From the NCBI GenBank assembly GCA_963767925.1, contig CAVYGB010000002.1:1312001-1376000 (forward strand): DNA of 64,000 nucleotides. Direction: 5' to 3'. The notes below the pieces were generated by a model. It made no database searches. It saw nothing but the letters and a program-made list of their open reading frames with translations, and was not told the origin of the DNA. The DNA is from an uncultured delta proteobacterium (GTDB lineage: Bacteria; Myxococcota_A; Polyangia; Fen-1088). The position numbers and the translations under genes are program-made. Of this stretch, positions 84 to 19,285 are shown one piece after another (the stretch's first letter is position 1; the number at the start of each line of letters is the position of its first letter).

Positions 84-575
84 ATGGAGCCGACTTTCCG
101 CGTGGGGGACCTGGCCGTCTATCCGGCACATGGCGTGGCACAGATCATCGGTGTCGAAACGCGCGAGATCTCGTCGAGCAAGCAGACCTTCTACATCCTG
201 AAGATCCTCGACAACGGGATGAAGATCATGATCCCGACGAAGAACGCCGCCGCCGTCGGCCTGCGCGAGCTCATCCGCGAGGAAGAGGTCGACGAGGTCT
301 TCGAGATCCTGAAGAGCCGGGAAGTCGCCGTCGAGGGCCAGACCTGGAACCGCCGCTACCGCGAGTACATGGAGAAGATCAAGACCGGCTCGGTCTTCGA
401 GATCGCCGAGGTCCTCCGCGACCTCCAGCGCCTCAAGGGCGACAAGGAGCTCTCCTTCGGCGAGCGCAAGATGCTCGACACCGCGCGCACCCTCCTCGTA
501 AAGGAGATCGCCGTGGCCACCAAGTCGAAGGAAGTAAAGATCGAGGAGAAGCTGAACCGCATCTTCGCCTGCTGA
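84..575 (+). CDS. cdnL: CarD/CdnL-family RNA polymerase-binding transcription factor
   Basis: F.VGD.AVYPAHGV N-terminus, WNRRYREY motif and LSFGERKML; no HMGA-like tail, so CdnL-type; GGAG RBS upstream. Confidence 0.93.
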   Translation: MEPTFRVGDLAVYPAHGVAQIIGVETREISSSKQTFYILKILDNGMKIMIPTKNAAAVGLRELIREEEVDEVFEILKSREVAVEGQTWNRRYREYMEKIKTGSVFEIAEVLRDLQRLKGDKELSFGERKMLDTARTLLVKEIAVATKSKEVKIEEKLNRIFAC

Positions 576-2283: not shown

Positions 2284-3492
2284 ATGCCCGAAGTCGTCGC
2301 GAACTCTCCTCCGCAAAGGACCACCATGCCTCCTCAGGTCATCTCGTGGCCAGCGTTGACGGTAGCAGCGGGTCTCCTCCTGATCATCCAACCGGCGTGC
2401 TCGGGGACAGACAGCACGGGTGCAGTGGGCACGGTCTCCTGTTCCTGCACGACCACGGGTGCTTGCGATCCCGGCCTGGTCTGTAGATCGAGCCTCTGCG
2501 TGGCCGACAGCCCCGCTGAGGGCAACGGCGCTACCGCCGGCATCACCCCGCCGCCCGAGAGGTCGATGAACGGCCCCCTCGAACCCTACCGAGGGGAGAG
2601 GTTTTCATTCGCCCGGCCCGTGGGGTGGCAGGTCATGGACGGACCTAACAATGGCCAGGACGGAAGGGAGGACAAGATGTTCATTTACCCCGAACCGGCG
2701 AGGGCAGGGGTTGGCTTCATTCGCCTCACCGCCGCGACTGTCCCATGGCACACGAACTCCCAAGCCAACGACCGCCTCGAGTACGTCCTCCGCGCTGGTG
2801 ACCAGACGGCGATCAGGCGACAGAGCTGCTGCACGGTATCCTTCTCCCACTGGTCCATGGCCATCGTCGACACCGGCAAGACCGGCTACAACCGCTTCCT
2901 GATGGTCCTGGCCAACAGCAACCGTCTCGGCTTCGAAAGTACGACTGCCGTCGAATCCCTGATCCAGGTCACCGCCGTCTCGATCGAAAAACTCGAGGAG
3001 GGCGCCCTGTGGATCGCCCTCAACATCGCCCAGAGCGTCGGCCCTCCGAACAGCTCCACCGCGGCGCTCGTTCATGGAACCTGGGAGAGCGTCCAGGGCG
3101 ACGGAACCGACTTCTTCGATGCCAGCGGCACCTTCATCGCAGGTAACACACACGGCGAATATCGCCTGTACAAGTTCCTCCCGAGTCGGCAGTACGAAAT
3201 CACCTCCGCCGTCGCCTTCCAGGGCCCCGTCACGACCAACGAAGCCATCGTCATCGACGAAGCCGGCCGCTACTCCCTGGACAGCGGCGTTCTAGCCCTC
3301 ACCCACCAAACTTGCATCGGGAGACAGTACAAGGACGGCGCCATGACTTTCCGCGGAGCCTGCGGCGAGGGAACGTCACCCTGGATTCTCCGAGTCGAAC
3401 CGCACTCTAACGGAGCCTTCCAGATGACCGGCGTCGCCTTAAACCCCGCCGGCTGGAACCGCCCCCAACTCATTGTTCCGTCGAGGAAGTAA
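2284..3492 (+). CDS. Lipoprotein with N-terminal Cys module and uncharacterised body (paralogue of 7637..9661)
   Basis: Hydrophobic stretch ending QPAC; CSCTTTGACDPGLVCRSSLC module; start could be a later ATG. Confidence 0.7.
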   Translation: MPEVVANSPPQRTTMPPQVISWPALTVAAGLLLIIQPACSGTDSTGAVGTVSCSCTTTGACDPGLVCRSSLCVADSPAEGNGATAGITPPPERSMNGPLEPYRGERFSFARPVGWQVMDGPNNGQDGREDKMFIYPEPARAGVGFIRLTAATVPWHTNSQANDRLEYVLRAGDQTAIRRQSCCTVSFSHWSMAIVDTGKTGYNRFLMVLANSNRLGFESTTAVESLIQVTAVSIEKLEEGALWIALNIAQSVGPPNSSTAALVHGTWESVQGDGTDFFDASGTFIAGNTHGEYRLYKFLPSRQYEITSAVAFQGPVTTNEAIVIDEAGRYSLDSGVLALTHQTCIGRQYKDGAMTFRGACGEGTSPWILRVEPHSNGAFQMTGVALNPAGWNRPQLIVPSRK

Positions 3493-3561
3493 CACGTGCC
3501 ATTTCGGTCATCAGGGTTGGTGGTCTCCTCGCTTGCGGGTCTCTTTAACACCATCTTGTGG

Positions 3562-3700
3562 CTCGACGGTGGGATCGCCGAGGAGCTGGTGCCAGTGCTT
3601 GGGGTCGACCTGGCTGGTCATGATGGTGGCGCGGTTGCCGCAGCGGTCCTCCAGGACCTCGAGCAGGTCGTTCTTCTCGGTCTCACGCGGGGCCGTCAGC
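3562..3700 (-). mobile_element. istB: IS21-family IstB (helper ATPase) C-terminal remnant
   Basis: DLLEVLEDRCGNRATIMTSQVDPKHWHQLLGDPT resembles the IstB LLE.LEDRY...STI.TSQ.P...WH...GDPT motif; no Walker A and no istA; boundaries approximate. Confidence 0.75.
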
Positions 3701-3921
3701 TCGGCAGACATACTCAGCCGTCGAAGAGGGGGCTGTGTCCACACAGGCCCCCGGGCGCCTAAGTCCCTCTCGCCCTCTCGCTCCTCCCACCAATCTTCGG
3801 GGCGTACACGTCTTCGGGGCATACCCGCGGCTCTCGCCTCTTACCGTTCAATCCCGTGAGGGCCGTCGATGCGCCGGCGCCGCTTGTCCACAAAACGCCC
3901 AAAGGAGTGTCGCACAGGCCC

Positions 3922-3983: not shown

Positions 3984-4469
3984 TCAAACTCGAAGATTCT
4001 GCTGAAGAGCTTTGTTGGTCTCGTGCTTCGCCTGGGCCAACTGACTCTGCAGAGTGATTGCACTGTGCCACATCTGCATAGACTCCTGCTGCTTCATCAT
4101 CTCTAGCTGAAAAAGCTTGTTCGGGTCACCCGCCGCCATCTCTTCCAACTTGGCGAATCGGTCTCCGCCTCCACCAAGAGGCCCTTCTAGCTCGCCCCCA
4201 CCGAAACCAGCACCTCCTGCTCCTGCTCCTGCTCCTGCTTGTCCCTGCCGCGACGGTGCTTCCGGCTCGGTCTGGAAGAAACCCTTGGCGGCCTCTTTGA
4301 GGTTCGGCGCGACGTCGACTACGTCCTGCGCCAGCCCGAGCCAATTTCCCGTCGCGGCGTTAACGACTCCGCTCGCGATGTCGCCCACGCCTTCGGGAAA
4401 TCCAAGGGCGTCAAAAACGCCTTCCGCTACGCTACCGAGGCCGCCGGTGATCTTGTCCAAAAAGCCCAT
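3984..4469 (-). CDS. T3SS needle/pilus (SctF)-like protein with N-terminal Gly-rich extension
   Basis: C-terminus QESMQMWHSAITLQSQLAQAKHETNKALQQNLRV aligns without gaps to the PrgI C-terminal helix (recalled from memory); GGAG RBS; no signal peptide. Confidence 0.6.
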   Translation of the reverse strand: MGFLDKITGGLGSVAEGVFDALGFPEGVGDIASGVVNAATGNWLGLAQDVVDVAPNLKEAAKGFFQTEPEAPSRQGQAGAGAGAGGAGFGGGELEGPLGGGGDRFAKLEEMAAGDPNKLFQLEMMKQQESMQMWHSAITLQSQLAQAKHETNKALQQNLRV

Positions 4470-4511: not shown

Positions 4512-4871
4512 CTACTGAGAGGCGTTCTGCTTGGCCTCTTGAACCGCTCGAGCAAACTGAAGCAGCTCTTCTCTCATCTTGCGAATGTTCTCGTTCGCCG
4601 GATCGATACCGTGTGCCGTCTCCAACAGGACCAACGCTTCCTTGAACTGGTTCTGCTTCCGAAGCATCGTCGCATAGAGGCCGAGCGACCAAGCATCCTT
4701 GCTCTCAACGGCCAGAACCCCTTTCAACAGCTTCTGAGCGTCCTCGTACCGTTCCGCCTGGTATAAGTTGTACGCTGTCTGACGCATTTCTTGGAGAAGC
4801 GCGGGGGGAGCATCTACGACGTCCTTGACCGTCAGTGCACCCCAGGCGGGCTGTTCGCGAGCGTTGTCCAT
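4512..4871 (-). CDS. SycD/LcrH-like TPR type III secretion chaperone
   Basis: 119 aa from ATG at 4871 (AAGGA RBS); LTVKDVV...LQEMRQTAYNLYQAERYEDAQKLL...LGL resembles the SycD first TPR. Confidence 0.68.
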   Translation of the reverse strand: MDNAREQPAWGALTVKDVVDAPPALLQEMRQTAYNLYQAERYEDAQKLLKGVLAVESKDAWSLGLYATMLRKQNQFKEALVLLETAHGIDPANENIRKMREELLQFARAVQEAKQNASQ

Positions 4872-5010: not shown

Positions 5011-6675
5011 TCAACCTCCGGCCGAACAAAAACGCCCAAGCCGCCTGGCCAGCCGTAACTGTTCTCCAGCACGCTTGGCGCTCATGAGATTGAGCACATG
5101 CCGCTGCATCTCGAGGAGTGCGTCCCGGTGACCCCCCTTGACATCGCCCTCAAGTCCTGCTGTGAGACCGCGTAGAGCGGGCCCCAGTTCTCCCCTGCGG
5201 ATGAACGTGTAAGCAAGATTCAGATTTGTCTGCGGATCCGAAGGATCAATCCCCTGCGCGCAAACATAAGCCTCATGCGCCTCCCCGAACCGCGCTAGCG
5301 AATAGAGGAGGTCCCCACGAATGTTCCAAAGCCAGGCGCTGTACCAACGATTCAGACGCAGCGCCGCCCCGACCCACTCCAGTCCCAAATCCCGCTCCTC
5401 CGCCTGATTGGCAACCATCGCTGCCTCACCGAGCAGCGCCCAGTCTCTAGGACTCTCCAACAACGCCGCGCGATAAGACTCGAGCCCTTCTCTTAGTCGT
5501 CCCATCTTCAGGTTCTCCCGAGACCGCCTCAATGATAGGGCACGCCGCCGGCCAGACGCGGAGTCAAAAAGCCTCCCGAACGCCAAGGCTGTCAATCGCA
5601 ACTCTCGACGGGTGACGAGCCTGGAGTGAACCGCTTGCTCATCGTCTCCTACAGGACTCGATACGGTCAACGCCTGTCCGACCAACGTGTCTTCCAGCAC
5701 AGGGAAATTCACACCCATCGCCGAGGTAACACCAAAGCGCTCGGCCGTGAGTGGTCGCCCCGACGAGGACGACCGCGTGACACCGTAGTCGTTGATGAGA
5801 ATGAAACCATCATCGGATATAGCCTGCGCGACTCCCGACAGATACTCGAACGCTCCGAAATTCCATGCAGCAGCTTCGCCCTCGCGAAGGTCCGTTGCCA
5901 GCCGAGAAACCCCGGGGATCTGGCCAACACCGTCGACCCGAAAATCCATCTGATAGTCAAAAAGCGTGAGAAGCGGGAACAGCTTCTCGAGGTCCTGAGA
6001 GTCACCCGATACGGCGACGGCTCTAATGTCATCGACACACATTCCAGTAAAGGACCGAACTACCTCTGAGTCGTCTATCAACTCGGTGCGAATGCAGAGT
6101 TGCTCGATAACACCAGCAGTGGTCTTACGCACCAACGCCGCCGGAAGAACACACAGAAGATAGTTGCAGAAAACAGCGCGAACGCCGGTCTCAACCCTCA
6201 ATACGCTCCGAGCATCGGCCAAGTGAGCCCGCACATGGCCTCGATGACTCTCAAACAACTTCATCTTCCCCCATTGTTCAAGAGTCGCCGGAGAACCATC
6301 GGTCACGACGAACTGAAGACGCTCGTAGAAATCCTCTTGGGCGTCATCACAGAGGGCCCGGAACGCGTCCAAAAAGTGAAGTGCAAAGAGACCAGTGCCT
6401 GCACCGTGTTCCACCACCGTGATCACTCCACTTGGCCTCGTTTCCCGAAGGTTCGCTAGAAGCAGACGTGCCGCATCCTCGGAAAGACGGCCGCTGTTGT
6501 TAACCCGATAGGGAACCTCTTTCCGGATGAAGGGTTTCACGCCTTCCAGGCGCCAGTAGAGCTCAGAAACTCGCCATTCGAGACACTCGCTTATGGGTCG
6601 AAAATCCTCGATGAGTCGAGCGCCGCGAGGGTCCTCCACCCGCTGCGGGCCCCTACATTTCGCCTCCATTGTCAT
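5011..6675 (-). CDS. MidA/NDUFAF7-like SAM-dependent methyltransferase with C-terminal TPRs
   Basis: VVEHGAGTG SAM motif, FYERLQFVVTDGSP and GFILINDYG; TPR-like helices at the C-terminus. Confidence 0.7.
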   Translation of the reverse strand: MTMEAKCRGPQRVEDPRGARLIEDFRPISECLEWRVSELYWRLEGVKPFIRKEVPYRVNNSGRLSEDAARLLLANLRETRPSGVITVVEHGAGTGLFALHFLDAFRALCDDAQEDFYERLQFVVTDGSPATLEQWGKMKLFESHRGHVRAHLADARSVLRVETGVRAVFCNYLLCVLPAALVRKTTAGVIEQLCIRTELIDDSEVVRSFTGMCVDDIRAVAVSGDSQDLEKLFPLLTLFDYQMDFRVDGVGQIPGVSRLATDLREGEAAAWNFGAFEYLSGVAQAISDDGFILINDYGVTRSSSSGRPLTAERFGVTSAMGVNFPVLEDTLVGQALTVSSPVGDDEQAVHSRLVTRRELRLTALAFGRLFDSASGRRRALSLRRSRENLKMGRLREGLESYRAALLESPRDWALLGEAAMVANQAEERDLGLEWVGAALRLNRWYSAWLWNIRGDLLYSLARFGEAHEAYVCAQGIDPSDPQTNLNLAYTFIRRGELGPALRGLTAGLEGDVKGGHRDALLEMQRHVLNLMSAKRAGEQLRLARRLGRFCSAGG

Positions 6676-14322: not shown

Positions 14323-14937
14323 CTACTGAGATCGGGGCGGCCGGGATTCGATCTTGCCGAGGGGGAGGACGGGTTTGTCGGGGGGAGGGGGGAGCTCGGC
14401 GGGTTTGCGGGTGGGATCGGTGTCGTCGATCCAGCGCAGGGTGATGAGGCGGAGCTTCATGTTGCGGGGGAACGTCGAGCGAACCAGCTGCTTGAGCTGG
14501 TCGGGAGTGGCGCCCTCCCGGCGGCGTTTGAGAAGGGTTCGCACCTCGGGTGGGGGATCGATCTCGGCACGGCCGAGATCGGCCGTCAGGGACAGCTCTT
14601 CGGGAGTGTATTCCTTCAGGGCGCGCGTGACAGCGGATGGGTCTCCGGGCGGGGCGCCCCGCTGGGCCTGGTCGGGACGCAGCGGGGGCATGCGGGTGGC
14701 CGGACGGGCAGGCGCTGCGGCCTGGCGAGCGGCAGGTACCGTCGGCTCATCGGTGGGCGAGGGGGGAGGGGCGGCCTCGGAGGGCGCCTGTGCGGTGGGC
14801 GGCACCGGATCCGCGGTCACGGCCGGGGCGGGCGCGGGCGCGGGCACGGAGACAACCGCCGGCCGAGGGCGCAGCCAGAAGACCGCTGCCGCTGCGGCCA
14901 GGGCCAGCAGCACCGGCACGATGATCCGCGCCTTCAT
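14323..14937 (-). CDS. Membrane-anchored Pro-rich hypothetical protein
   Basis: N-terminal TM helix, Pro/Ala linker and small C-terminal domain; ATGA overlap with the clostripain gene. Confidence 0.65.
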   Translation of the reverse strand: MKARIIVPVLLALAAAAAVFWLRPRPAVVSVPAPAPAPAVTADPVPPTAQAPSEAAPPPSPTDEPTVPAARQAAAPARPATRMPPLRPDQAQRGAPPGDPSAVTRALKEYTPEELSLTADLGRAEIDPPPEVRTLLKRRREGATPDQLKQLVRSTFPRNMKLRLITLRWIDDTDPTRKPAELPPPPDKPVLPLGKIESRPPRSQ

Positions 14938-17270
14938 ACGCCCTGACCCGGCGGCGGGGTGGTGGTTCCCGTCGGTGGCGGGGTGGGCGGGGTGGTTCCC
15001 GGGGGAGTGCTCCCCGGCTGCGAGGTCGGCGGCGGCGGCATGCTGACGCTGCCGCTGCCGGGCCGGTCACCGAGCTGCACGAGGTTTGCCTTGAAGCTGT
15101 TGTTCCCCCAGACGTCCGCCACCCTCAGCATGAGGATGTAGGCGCCTGCAGAGGCGGTGTTCAGCCCGAACTGGACCGTACCGTTGGCGGGGATGTAGAC
15201 GCCGGTCGGGGAGAGCTGCTTCTCGATCACCCCCATCTCCAGATCGAACACCTGGAGCGTCGGCACGAAGACGGCCTTGTCGAAGACGCCCGCGAGCTCC
15301 GCCAGGGTGAAGACGCGAAAGCGCCCACCACCCAGGTCCAGGACGACATTGGTCGCTCCGCCAGTCTTGGGGTCGACAAGCAGGCTGGCGGGGAGGGCGC
15401 TTTCTCCATCCTGCACCACGCCCTCGGCGGCCAGGTAGGGCGTCTGGTAGGTCTGCCCCTGCGCGGTGAACGCCCAGGGCGTGAGCGACACAGGCAGGTT
15501 CTCCGGGTTGGCGACCAGGACGGAGTGCTTTCCATCCCAGGTCAGCGCGTGCTCTCCGGCACCGATAAAGCCGTGGGCGATGGACCCGAAAAGAGTCGCG
15601 TAGCGGGCGCTCCTGGCCTGAAACAGCAGCCCTTCCACGTAGGCCGTGTCGTCTCCCGTGATCTGGAAGGCCACTTGCGCCGCGTCGTCCGGCTTCGGTG
15701 GGGAGGTCACGGTGGCGGTCGCCGTCACCGTCGGTCCGGTCGCCGGCATCGCCGCCCGGAGCATGTTCAGCGAGGCGCCCCATCCAGTGGCTCGCTCCCA
15801 GGGCCCTGCCAGCCGCGGGTAGAGGCCCAGAGTCTCCGGGTCGATCAGCTTGACCGGGCCTCCATACACGTGGAGACCGAGCTGGGCCTTCCGGATATCC
15901 CCGGCCGCAACGGCCAGACGAGCCGCCAGCGCAGCGTCGTAGGCCCGGGAGGCTGCGCCGCTGAGGGCCAGGTTGCTCCCCCCCTTCAGGGTCTCGAGGA
16001 TGTTTCCGATGTCGCGCAGGTCCAGCCCGCCGCTGTCCGCACCGCTGAAATACCCCGGGAAGCTCAGATACAGCCCGCGCGCGGCCAGGGCCGGGCCGCC
16101 CGGGGTCCTCATCTGATCACTGACCGTCTTCATCGCGGTCATGAAGGTCCCGAACTTCTCGGTGTCCCACACGGCGTGCGAGCGAAACATGGTGTCCATG
16201 CCCCCGGCCTTCCGGTGGTGCTCGTCCCACTGCGCGGCCTCGGCGACGGCGAACTCCTTGCCGGTGGCTGAAGCGTTGGCGCTCAACCAGGTCAACGTCT
16301 CCGTGTAGTCGAACCCGTCGCCATAATCGAGCTCGGCGTTGGCGATGAAGACCTTGGTGAGATCCGCGAAAGGAGGGATCACCTCGACCCCCGACATCAA
16401 GCAGGTGTCGAACCCGAAGATGTCGAGCGGACGGACACCGCCGAGACCGGCCCGCTGAAGCCCCGCCCGTACGGCAGAGGCCACGCTGTCGACGGCCATG
16501 CCCGGCGCTCGCTCGCGCGTGTTGTCCTGGTTGTCTCCGCCGAAGCCGCCCCGCCAGGCTCCACCGTGGTCCCACAGGATGACGCCGTAGCGATCCGCGG
16601 GGAACTGCTTGAAGGTGGCTTCGATCGCCGAGGCCAGGATGGTGGGATCATCGAAGTCGAGCTCGTTCTCGGCCCCGAGCTCCTGGGGCTCCTGCCCGTT
16701 TCCAGTGATCCGGTACCAGAACGCTCCCGGCGGAAACATCGGACCACCAGCCATGACCCGCACCTTGGCGTTCCAGTCGACCAGCGCGATGAACTGGACG
16801 TTGTCGCCGATCTTCGCCTGGCTCATCTCCGCTATGTCGCGCAGCAAGGACGGGCTCAGCGAGTGGTCGCCGTGCCCATAAAAGAAGATGGTCCACTTGG
16901 CCCCGCCGGCGCCCGGTCGTTGCCCGCTGCCGGCGAGCCCGGCGAGGTTCGCGAAGCCCGCCTCGCGAGGCAGCGGCGTCTGCCCATCCGCCCCGGTGAC
17001 CGGAGCGGGACTGGTGCCCCCGCCGACAGCGACCGTCTGGGTGGGGGCGCTCATGTTCGGGCCCGGCCCACCGCCCCGGAGGCAGACTCCGGACTGGCAA
17101 CTCAGCCCCGGATCACATTGATTGGTGCTCGTGCAGGCGCAGGTCTCGACGCCGACGACACAGGAGCTTGCATCGCCGCTCCCGGTACAAGCGGGGACGA
17201 GCGAAACGGCAGCGCCGAACAGCCCGAAGAGCGTGAGGAAACCGACTCGAGGACCGACTGGTGTCTTCAT
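14934..17270 (-). CDS. Clostripain (C11)-family cysteine peptidase lipoprotein with N-terminal Cys module
   Basis: Lipobox VPAC; KWTIFFY, ILWDHGGAW (catalytic His) and FGFDTCLM (catalytic Cys); CVVGVETCACTSTNQCDPGLSCQSGVC. Confidence 0.85.
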   Translation of the reverse strand: MKTPVGPRVGFLTLFGLFGAAVSLVPACTGSGDASSCVVGVETCACTSTNQCDPGLSCQSGVCLRGGGPGPNMSAPTQTVAVGGGTSPAPVTGADGQTPLPREAGFANLAGLAGSGQRPGAGGAKWTIFFYGHGDHSLSPSLLRDIAEMSQAKIGDNVQFIALVDWNAKVRVMAGGPMFPPGAFWYRITGNGQEPQELGAENELDFDDPTILASAIEATFKQFPADRYGVILWDHGGAWRGGFGGDNQDNTRERAPGMAVDSVASAVRAGLQRAGLGGVRPLDIFGFDTCLMSGVEVIPPFADLTKVFIANAELDYGDGFDYTETLTWLSANASATGKEFAVAEAAQWDEHHRKAGGMDTMFRSHAVWDTEKFGTFMTAMKTVSDQMRTPGGPALAARGLYLSFPGYFSGADSGGLDLRDIGNILETLKGGSNLALSGAASRAYDAALAARLAVAAGDIRKAQLGLHVYGGPVKLIDPETLGLYPRLAGPWERATGWGASLNMLRAAMPATGPTVTATATVTSPPKPDDAAQVAFQITGDDTAYVEGLLFQARSARYATLFGSIAHGFIGAGEHALTWDGKHSVLVANPENLPVSLTPWAFTAQGQTYQTPYLAAEGVVQDGESALPASLLVDPKTGGATNVVLDLGGGRFRVFTLAELAGVFDKAVFVPTLQVFDLEMGVIEKQLSPTGVYIPANGTVQFGLNTASAGAYILMLRVADVWGNNSFKANLVQLGDRPGSGSVSMPPPPTSQPGSTPPGTTPPTPPPTGTTTPPPGQGV

Positions 17271-17619
17271 CTGGAGGACCTCTCGCTGAAAAATGGAACA
17301 CTGAGCAAAGAAGCGTGCATAAGCTAACCGAAGAGCCGCAACACGTCCATCGCAGTGCTTGCACCAGGCGCGTTGTCGGATATGTAGTCTCCCGGCTTCG
17401 GATGCACGCCGGAAAAGTTGCGCGATTCTCGCGAGAAAAGCGGGTAGGCGGGCCGCCAGCCCGCTCTGGCCCGCTCCTCTGGGCCGGTCGAAGTCTCCCT
17501 TCCAGAAGGAAGGCGGGCTTCACCGCCGCTCCGCTTCTCGCTTTTCTACGCGCGGTAACGTGACTAAGCTGGCCCCTATATACTGCGTTGCGCTAACGCC
17601 ACCCGCATCGAATCCAGTA

Positions 17620-17692: not shown

Positions 17693-19285
17693 ATGGCTTC
17701 GACGATCGACAACCGCAGCTCGGTGCACAGCGCCCCACCCACCGTCACCGAAGACGCCGGTGCAGCCAAGAGCGTCTCCAGCCTCCCGGCCCAGGGCCCC
17801 ATCTCCGGTGAGCAGGCTCGGGATGCCATCAAGCAGGCCACCCAGGATCTCGACGGGCAGGCCGCCGGCCTCGAATACAACCAGCTCAAGGACTGGGCCT
17901 CCGCCAACAAGGACCGCCTGTCACCGGAGGCGCAGAAGCTGTTCCAGATCTACGACCGATACGCGCTCGACGCCCTCAAGCAAGGCAAGACCGGCATCGA
18001 CACCGGCAACTACGACAAGATGCTCAAGGAGATGGACGGCGCCCTCCCTCCGACCTGGCAGAAGATGGACAAGATCGAGGGAAGCTGGCACCAGGCGTCC
18101 AATCTCCAGCAGAACGTCTTCGGGGAGATCAAAGACGCCTACAAGGACTTCAAGGAGCTCCTGAACCGCCAGCCGACCTACAACGACAGCGGCGCGGGCA
18201 AGGCCCTCCGGGATCTCGACAACAAGACCACCCTCGACAGCATCCGCAACGCCGGCCTCTCCGGCTCCGGCCGACAGGCCAGCGTGAGCGGCACCGACAT
18301 GGTCGACACGATCGACAAGGCCACCTCCGACCTCGATGGCCAGGCGGCCGGCCTCGAGTACCGCGACGTCAAGACCTGGCAGGACGCGAACAAGAACAAC
18401 CTCTCGCCGGAGGCCAAGAAGGTCCTCGACATCTACGACAAGTACGCCACAAAGGCGCTGGGCGAAGGGCGCACCCATCTCACCCAGGACGAGCACAAGT
18501 CGATGATCGCCGAGATGCGCGAGGCAGCCAAGCCCCAGCAAAAGGCCACGGAGTACAACGACAAGAGCGCGGGCAAGGCCATCGAGACCCTGAACGACAA
18601 GCTTCGGGGCCCAGGACAGGGCGACATCAGCGGCAAGGACATGACCAACGCCATAAACCGTGGCACGAAGGACGGCGACGGTCAGGCGGCGGGCCTCGAA
18701 TACCGCGACTTCAAGACCTGGTTCAACGAGAACAAGGACAAGCTCTCTCCGGAAGCCAAGAAAGTCATGGAGATCTACGACCGCTACGCGACCAAGGTCA
18801 TGGGCGATGGGCGCACCTCCTTCACCGCCGCCGAACACAAGGCGATGATCGCGGAAATGCGACAGGCGGAGAAGCCTGCGGCCCAGCACCTCGACGCGGG
18901 TGCGGGCAAGGCGATCGACGGTCTCAACGAGAAGCTCGGCCAGAAGAGCGGATCGAAGATCGATGGCCAGGAGCTGACCCAGGCAATCTTGAAGGGCACG
19001 GAAGACCTCGACAATCAGGCCGCCGGCCTCGAATACGACGAGTTCCGGAAGTGGGCCAACGAGAACGCTGCCTCCCTCTCGCCCGAGGCCAAGAAGGTGA
19101 TGGAGATCTACGACAAGTACGTCACCGAGGCTCACAAGCAGGGCCGCACCGGCATCCTGCCGGAGGACCACGCCAAGATGGTCACCGAGATGCAAGACGC
19201 CTCAAAGCCGAAGCTGACGGCGACCGACGTGATGAACGCGTACAGCTTCGAAGACATCCGCGCGCGGCTCCCGCACAAGGGCTAA
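17693..19285 (+). CDS. Hydrophilic protein with four ~100-aa repeats and no signal peptide
   Basis: Four copies of D.D[GN]QAAGLEY.....W...N...LSPEA.K...IYD.Y; AAGGA RBS; strongly biased codon usage. Confidence 0.85.
   Translation: MASTIDNRSSVHSAPPTVTEDAGAAKSVSSLPAQGPISGEQARDAIKQATQDLDGQAAGLEYNQLKDWASANKDRLSPEAQKLFQIYDRYALDALKQGKTGIDTGNYDKMLKEMDGALPPTWQKMDKIEGSWHQASNLQQNVFGEIKDAYKDFKELLNRQPTYNDSGAGKALRDLDNKTTLDSIRNAGLSGSGRQASVSGTDMVDTIDKATSDLDGQAAGLEYRDVKTWQDANKNNLSPEAKKVLDIYDKYATKALGEGRTHLTQDEHKSMIAEMREAAKPQQKATEYNDKSAGKAIETLNDKLRGPGQGDISGKDMTNAINRGTKDGDGQAAGLEYRDFKTWFNENKDKLSPEAKKVMEIYDRYATKVMGDGRTSFTAAEHKAMIAEMRQAEKPAAQHLDAGAGKAIDGLNEKLGQKSGSKIDGQELTQAILKGTEDLDNQAAGLEYDEFRKWANENAASLSPEAKKVMEIYDKYVTEAHKQGRTGILPEDHAKMVTEMQDASKPKLTATDVMNAYSFEDIRARLPHKG

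Follow-up and report, generated by a model that had tools for sequence, protein, structure and literature searches.

The locus described here raises the question of what a type III secretion (T3SS) needle helix does on a protein much longer than a needle subunit. A sequence-only reading of the window (the whole 64,000-nucleotide stretch of DNA that was analysed) had singled out one such protein, here called P0001, and had proposed a decorated needle or pilus subunit, or a needle-translocator hybrid that displays a membrane-active domain. The open reading frame is real, with a start codon and a ribosome-binding site (Table 1), and its N-terminus, AGAGAG linker and C-terminus are as quoted in that reading. 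The length of about twice that of a normal needle subunit also holds, at 161 aa for P0001 against 80 aa for PrgI.

Table 1. Features of the P0001 locus, with positions counted from the first letter of the window
Feature	Position	Strand	Remark
Two-domain needle-helix protein P0001, 161 aa	3984..4469	-	ORF with ATG start
Ribosome-binding site GAGGGAG of the P0001 gene	4476..4482	-	
N-terminal helical domain, residues 1-65	4275..4469	-	Conserved; predicted chaperone contact
E-P-x-x-P motif, residues 68-72	4254..4268	-	P72 nearly invariant
Gly/Ala-rich disordered linker, residues 73-103	4161..4253	-	
SctF-type short helix, turn and long C-terminal helix, residues 104-161	3987..4160	-	
TPR chaperone gene, 119 aa	4512..4871	-	ATG at 4871; best NCBIfam match SycD/LcrH, below cut-off
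Promoter-like motif GCAAC-N15-CCGATAA	4915..4941	-	70 nt before the TPR start; conserved
carD-family gene	84..575	+	Landmark adjoining the pair in relatives; context, outside the system
IS21 istB remnant	3511..3822	-	Just 3' of the P0001 gene

Searched alone, P0001 matched no Pfam family, no needle family in NCBIfam (the sole match being TrbK, at 0.053) and no needle chain in the PDB. The PDB matches that did appear, to alpha-synuclein and other low-complexity chains, were compositional and were rejected. A PF09392 search of the source genome returned nothing, the control of that search being likewise without signal, and no close relative was present among the 580 pattern matches of a metagenome scan with P0001. 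Among sequencing runs, no RNA data set was listed as containing the sequence, and one soil run was listed with a small share. In the AlphaFold model the N-terminal domain forms three helices (pLDDT 56-76) and the linker is disordered. The C-terminal region consists of a first helix of only 10 residues (104-113) and a long helix (116-160), with a pLDDT of 89-96 over residues 121-160. Foldseek gave no match with this model, and with VIA-align the whole model resembled generic helices only (best Z 5.5).

P0001 alone is thus not significant; its resemblance to needles becomes significant through the profile of its family. One close relative and P0001 gave a two-sequence profile, which retrieved 141 representatives among 1.84 billion sequences. 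The helix alignment comprises 112 of 142 proteins, namely those with the C-terminal helix, N-domain-only proteins and apparent chance matches being excluded; the two-domain alignment comprises 33 members of 119-237 aa, chosen by eye for the presence of both ends. The family layout is a conserved N-domain (residues 1-65), the EPxxP motif, a low-complexity linker that varies widely in length, and the C-terminal helix; the largest two-domain proteins, which have variable inserts, measure 400-540 aa. In the helix, Q128 and N158 are invariant and H149 is nearly so, and all three are retained in P0001. Two positions that are hydrophobic in the family are polar in P0001 (Q141 and Q156). P0001 is a divergent member, scoring 26 bits against the two-domain C-terminal profile, compared with 80 for P0003 and P0005, which are both in that profile. 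Its look-alike clusters in the Atlas are mostly from Myxococcota, and PF09392 is found on 17% of the members of a look-alike cluster. Many proteins with the N-domain only (P0015, P0027, P0036, P0045, P0072, L037:8605-9228 and L125:8571-10013) lack the needle helix. They share with the needle-helix proteins a hydrophobic-R-small terminus, possibly a common C-terminal signal or a degenerate helix.

Against a profile built from 110 relatives, P0001 and P0003 being left out, the last 48 residues of P0001 reach 41.5 bits; the maximum for 1000 shuffled sequences is 13.8. In the PDB, the family profiles place EsaG, PrgI and MxiH first. For the 33-member two-domain profile, needle subunits or their fusions are the top 12 of 14 matches, headed by 7y6c_F at an E value of 3.9e-5, the only one of the 14 below 1e-3; the matched chain of 7Y6C is described in the cited part of the source as the EsaG needle peptide (PMC9426511). 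For the 112-member helix profile, needle chains are the top 8 of 34 matches (best E 1e-5) and unrelated chains begin at E 0.009. At E values up to 0.1, PF09392 (T3SS_needle_F) matches 43 of the 112 members, the best at 4.5e-9, against 4 for EspA, 2 for SseC and 1 for HrpA; the EspA matches (best 0.0033), like those to SseB in 3 of the 112, are weak. TIGR02105 matches 23 of the 112, compared with 2 for SctI. A needle-profile search, which had been put forward as a check, is negative for P0001 itself and positive for members of its family. As judged from these profiles, the tail of P0001 is homologous to T3SS needle subunits, and the relationship is real and well supported. The proposal of an SctF-like needle helix on a longer protein is supported by the profile searches, the neighbouring T3SS-type TPR chaperone and the presence of a T3SS in the genome.

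The alignment to PrgI that had been put forward in the earlier reading is correct in its register. The last 40 residues of P0001 align without gaps and with 7 identities (Q128, Q141, S142, A154, Q157, N158 and R160), W134 facing an aromatic and E150 an acidic residue of PrgI as claimed. The D-P turn (residues 116-117) does not fit, lying four residues earlier than in PrgI. P0001 is by homology a needle-family subunit that falls outside strict SctF membership on score and size: it has no match to PF09392 or TIGR02105, its relatives matching mostly weakly, and with 161 aa and two domains it differs from the single helix-turn-helix of 70-90 aa. It is not assigned to SctI either (PF17001/NF038054), given only the 2 weak matches among the 112 members and another gene in front of sctJ in the source genome. 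Needle, rod, tip and EspA-type proteins all have a similar terminal helix. The role of P0001 is therefore not fixed by homology, and the remainder of the protein and its genomic setting have to be considered.

The N-domain bears the family motif E-x3-D-x2-GLPE-x2-GD-x-ASG-x2-N-x2-TGN. Searches of the PDB, Pfam and the Atlas gave no usable relative for it, with no translocator family among the Pfam and PDB matches, and VIA-align found generic helices (best Z 6.8, rmsd 2.5, 56 aligned). An N-domain acting as a fused YscE-type co-chaperone was considered and rejected, as it fits in size and predicted position without sequence support. The suggestion of a membrane-active domain is not supported, in view of a Kyte-Doolittle peak of 1.04, of 8 acidic against 3 basic residues, of the lack of likeness to the SseC-like neighbour P0224 (probability 0.1%) and of the predicted coverage of most of the domain by the chaperone. 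The peak is low in all 33 two-domain members (0.53-1.46). With these values, P0001 does not classify as a hydrophobic translocator (SctE/SctB).

P0001 could nevertheless be a true tip-translocator fusion, in which the helix would anchor on the filament and the N-domain would enter the target membrane and replace separate translocators. No SseC-family gene was found in the source genome, which is 84% complete. In two genomes (G012 and G031), a separate gene for the N-domain lies downstream of the TPR gene, in the position of translocators at other loci. The two-domain counterpart of Myxococcus xanthus AM003 (476 aa) matches NolX at 1.9e-5 and HrpK1 at 8e-4 and is followed by a SycD-like TPR gene; the partner of P0001 is SycD-like too. 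The acidic and weakly hydrophobic N-domain, its dissimilarity to P0224 and the lack of translocator families among its matches all argue against such a fusion, which we regard as distinctly unlikely. From the needle-translocator hybrid of the earlier reading, only the positional part stands, by which the gene occupies the tip and translocator slot of other Myxococcota; the splitting of the gene in some genomes, with needle helix and N-domain encoded separately, and the NolX/HrpK1-like inserts of the M. xanthus counterpart agree with this part.

Seven syntenic homologues of the TPR protein were scanned, and six of them match SycD/LcrH below the cut-off as it does itself. The P0001 operon contains no small YscE-type co-chaperone gene. 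In 8 of the 12 relative loci fetched, the order carD, TPR gene, two-domain gene and convergent gyrB is kept. The remaining four comprise one locus with the pair elsewhere, two with split genes and one with the other subfamily; in the split loci, the needle-helix gene and the N-domain-only gene flank the TPR gene. Nine of 10 loci have the sequence GCAAC-N15-[CT]CGA[ATG] upstream of the TPR gene, at 53-78 nt from its start; this count was made on the same sequences from which the motif was derived and on kin that are not independent. At spacings of 13, 14, 16 and 17 the motif was not found, and its chance rate is 0.0023 per 170 nt. We take the GCAAC-N15-CCGATAA motif to be sigma-28-like; a search for a sigma-70 promoter between positions 3400 and 5100 found none. 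The same motif precedes sctI-sctJ and one needle-helix paralogue on contig C3 of the source genome, as well as the long-locus paralogue of Myxococcus sp. Y35. P0001 shares its genome with the core of a non-flagellar T3SS and its promoter motif with sctI-sctJ, at a site away from the core loci.

For the complex of the TPR protein with P0001, a prediction score of 0.69 was obtained, against 0.00 for the best control; the mark used is reached by 116 of 157 solved and by 2 of 215 mismatched pairs. At least 39% of the contacts recur between runs, and the partner pLDDT is at least 54. The score may reflect likeness to similar chaperone complexes that have already been solved. The predicted interface covers residues 15-74 and 127-145 of P0001, and the most confident contacts are made by its helix at 133-141 with residues 29-55 of the TPR protein, among them the invariant G51. 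The EPxxP motif is inside this interface. It loosely resembles a class II anchor and departs from the P/VxLxxP consensus, the chaperone classes being compared as given in the cited part of PMC13466201. The TPR protein is thus predicted to bind both the N-domain/EPxxP region and the needle helix.

A grip of this kind bears on the explanation that P0001 is the major needle subunit with an N-terminal extension, building a decorated filament once released from its TPR chaperone. The foremost predicted contacts are those of the TPR protein with the needle helix, and, according to the cited part of PMC9426511, it is by the C-terminal helix that a needle chaperone holds its client. In addition, PF09392 matches 11 of the 33 two-domain members (best 2.7e-6), compared with 2 for EspA. 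Against this, the partner is best matched by SycD/LcrH, members of 400-540 aa with variable inserts would be hard to pack at every subunit, and the gene order of relatives assigns the needle position to another protein.

In named Myxococcaceae and their kin, sctI and sctJ come directly after a gene of a separate needle-helix subfamily in all 74 loci with enough flank among 80 fetched, and sctR, sctU and sctV follow in 64 of 64; the loci are close kin obtained with a single retrieval pattern. The sctF position before sctI-sctJ therefore belongs to this other subfamily. In long loci, an extended copy and a TPR gene are placed ahead of a sigma factor, sctI and sctJ. The same loci also hold minimal copies of 72 aa. 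Short copies near sctV gave five matches in Archangium gephyra, three in Corallococcus coralloides, three in Citreicoccus and two in Myxococcus sp. Y35; none was detected in the fragmented draft of M. xanthus AM003. Identical 72-aa needle-helix genes stand in tandem near sctV in A. gephyra and C. coralloides (L163:10216-11469, L163:17400-18074 and L171:5726-6382), a gene dosage that suggests a highly expressed filament subunit. Two 72-aa copies that were scanned have no PF09392 match on their own. Taken with the SycD-type partner, the occupied sctF position and the minimal copies make P0001 unlikely as the major needle subunit. The long loci also encode DUF1521 proteins with TPR neighbours of their own (L162:7560-8705 and L163:8578-9726), which are candidate T3SS substrates.

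The carD-linked slot, which P0001 and its partner share with relatives, is occupied differently in three other genomes (G273, G111 and G179). There, a longer needle-helix gene lies in the slot, with translocator-like genes behind it (loci L128, L174 and L176); SseC matches of 8.4e-5 and 5.9e-8 were obtained in two of them, L128 and L174. Apparent tip-(TPR)-SctE-SctB operons are found at L128:8658-10617, L174:3019-5811, L176:4068-7319 and L173:3253-5648, the last with a weak SctB2 match. The scores of the "tip-like" subfamily are approximate, 1 of 14 rows being in the wrong-strand translation. Genes for the same helix thus stand in tip-chaperone-translocator operons in the carD slot of other genomes, and no translocator gene follows P0001. 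This position makes a tip or minor subunit likelier than a main needle. In combination with the other subfamily in the sctF position, the translocator-like genes of the carD slot point to a compact, chaperoned tip or minor subunit.

The source genome (9.3 Mb, about 71% GC) encodes a non-flagellar T3SS in scattered loci, namely sctRSTU, a sigma factor with an sctI-like gene and sctJ, sctV, and sctN; SctN scores over its cut-off. Against the family profiles the SctI-like gene reaches no more than 2.2 bits, which assigns the rod role to a gene distinct from P0001. Four secretins are present, all outside the T3SS loci, two of them in pilM-Q-like and gsp-like contexts as read by eye. Two stand-alone needle-helix paralogues (C3:34024-34518 and C3:51961-52659, loci L121 and L122) are of the operon-heading subfamily of Myxococcaceae. 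Their C-terminal 56 residues are identical, and they are the foremost shaft-subunit candidates of the genome. A flagellar role for P0001 was set aside, the flagellar cluster on contig C8 having its own flagellin. In several loci (L161:9513-9992, L036, L123, L181 and L190), a needle-helix paralogue is followed by an unnamed conserved protein of about 125-160 aa. In the source genome this protein stands alone at C8:2790035-2790409, with a similar promoter motif upstream.

Among 251 genomes of the phylum, in each of which at most 14 candidates were scored, the family occurs in 49, SctJ-type genes (told apart from FliF by a gap in the scores, from 98 to 87 bits) in 55, and both in 47. In one of the two genomes with the family and without SctJ, the match is to the linker only. 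Of the 61 genomes in the taxonomic family of the source genome, 57 have SctJ and 28 have a member that the two-domain profile detects, so the basal body is often without a detectable partner.

The pair stands 3.4 kb away from carD in the window, inverted and next to the IS21 remnant, which may be related to the inversion. This setting is relevant to the last explanation, in which P0001 does not polymerise and acts as a soluble regulator of export or a rod-length element of the periplasm, or is a copy in decay. The polar residues Q141 and Q156, the inverted position in a stretch of lower GC (0.57-0.60), the many genomes of the taxonomic family without a member and the missing T3SS secretin are all compatible with it. 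The intact reading frame, ribosome-binding site, promoter motif and partner gene, the retained Q128, N158 and H149 and the separate SctI-like rod gene speak against it, and of the explanations weighed here we hold it to be the least probable.

Several neighbours of the pair were also noted. A SAM-dependent methyltransferase (PF02636) fused to C-terminal TPRs is encoded directly upstream in the same low-GC stretch (5011-6675, minus strand); it is placed outside the system, since it is absent beside the pair in relative loci and the promoter lies in between. A lipoprotein-like gene, clostripain-like by eye (14934-17270, minus strand), has a GCAAC-N15 motif near 17421, 151 nt upstream. Positions 17693-19285 (plus strand) encode a lysine-rich protein of 530 aa with about five repeats containing a QAAGLEY motif and with weak Pfam matches only. 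Accessory genes, lipoprotein-like and other, fill about 31 kb (about 600-32000) between carD and gyrB, which are about 1-2 kb apart in relatives. Among the housekeeping genes of the window, gyrB, dnaN, recF and uvrB appear frameshifted, probably through assembly errors.

Overall, we favour, at a probability of roughly 0.55, that P0001 is exported by the scattered myxobacterial T3SS and joins an SctF-type filament as a tip or minor decorated subunit, and not as the shaft. The 74 of 74 loci with the other subfamily before sctI-sctJ and the two such paralogues in the source genome count in favour of this role. On the other side are the divergence of P0001 and its lack of a needle match of its own, the single PDB match of 14 below 1e-3, the frequent lack of a member in SctJ-containing genomes of the taxonomic family and the absence of a secretin from the T3SS loci of the source genome. 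In the proposed sequence of events, the predicted grip of the TPR protein on the N-domain/EPxxP region and the needle helix would keep P0001 from polymerising in the cytoplasm. After its export by the scattered T3SS of the source genome, the helix would pack with the shaft subunits, probably the two C3 paralogues. The linker would then display the N-domain (in M. xanthus, the larger NolX-like inserts) on the outside, towards the outer membrane or a prey cell.

Like the SctF needles PrgI, MxiH and EsaG/SsaG, P0001 has a homologous C-terminal helix that ends in N-hydrophobic-R, and its paralogue subfamily retains the order needle-sctI-sctJ. As in the class III chaperone pairs PscE-PscG and EscE-EsaH, a TPR partner is predicted to hold the helix. 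Unlike SctF, the P0001 family is twice as long or more, has a conserved N-domain and linker and stays below the curated cut-offs. It also deviates from the SctF/class III systems in that no YscE-type co-chaperone gene is present, the TPR protein is matched best as SycD-type and the pair is encoded away from the T3SS core.

P0001 resembles the SctA tips (EspA, SseB, IpaD/SipD) in having additional domains in front of a filament-packing helix at the C-terminus. The self-chaperoning N-terminal bundles of IpaD and BipD, described in the cited part of PMC13466201, are counted as a further likeness. The carD slot of other Myxococcota, with its tip-like, TPR and SseC-like genes, is likewise comparable to known tip-chaperone-translocator operons. 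In contrast to SctA tips, matches to EspA (4 of 112) and SseB (3 of 112) are weak, a long central coiled coil is lacking and no translocators were found in the source genome.

A third close system is the T3SS* of myxobacteria, called "needleless" (mxan_2434-2464 in M. xanthus; the short and long Myxo loci of Abby and Rocha, 2012), in which the export apparatus is of the kind found here, with SctRSTUV, SctJ, SctI and SctN, LcrH-like TPR proteins and no dedicated secretin. In the cited parts of the literature, this system is described as lacking needle and translocon (PMC3459982, PMC10433427, PMC12075869, PMC12428579). Abby and Rocha (2012) report Myxo systems without SctF, through loss (PMC3459982); a 2023 review gives a cluster without needle or translocon homologues (PMC10433427); and the "needleless" label is kept in papers from 2024-2025 (PMC12075869, PMC12428579, PMC11509652). 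In the current model, as outlined there, the tips of Tad pili stand in for the needle, and how the T3SS* of M. xanthus lyses prey without one is presented as an open question in papers of 2023-2025 (PMC12075869, PMC10433427). In the literature searched, no paper naming SctF homologues in Myxococcota was found, and the family genes are annotated as "hypothetical protein" in Myxococcus, Corallococcus and Hyalangium. Unlike the T3SS* as published, SctF-like genes head both locus types and stand in tandem beside sctV. The apparent translocator operons bear on the Myxo systems that are described as without a translocon, and the genes named here permit a direct test of the needleless T3SS* and of the SctF-loss statements in a tractable laboratory organism. 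At what we consider even odds, the predatory myxobacterial T3SS would not be needleless: a divergent SctF-type set, made up of an extended operon-head protein, tandem 72-aa copies beside sctV and chaperoned two-domain proteins as interchangeable tips, would build the conduit for prey lysis, and the earliest-branching injectisome lineage would have kept its needle subunit.
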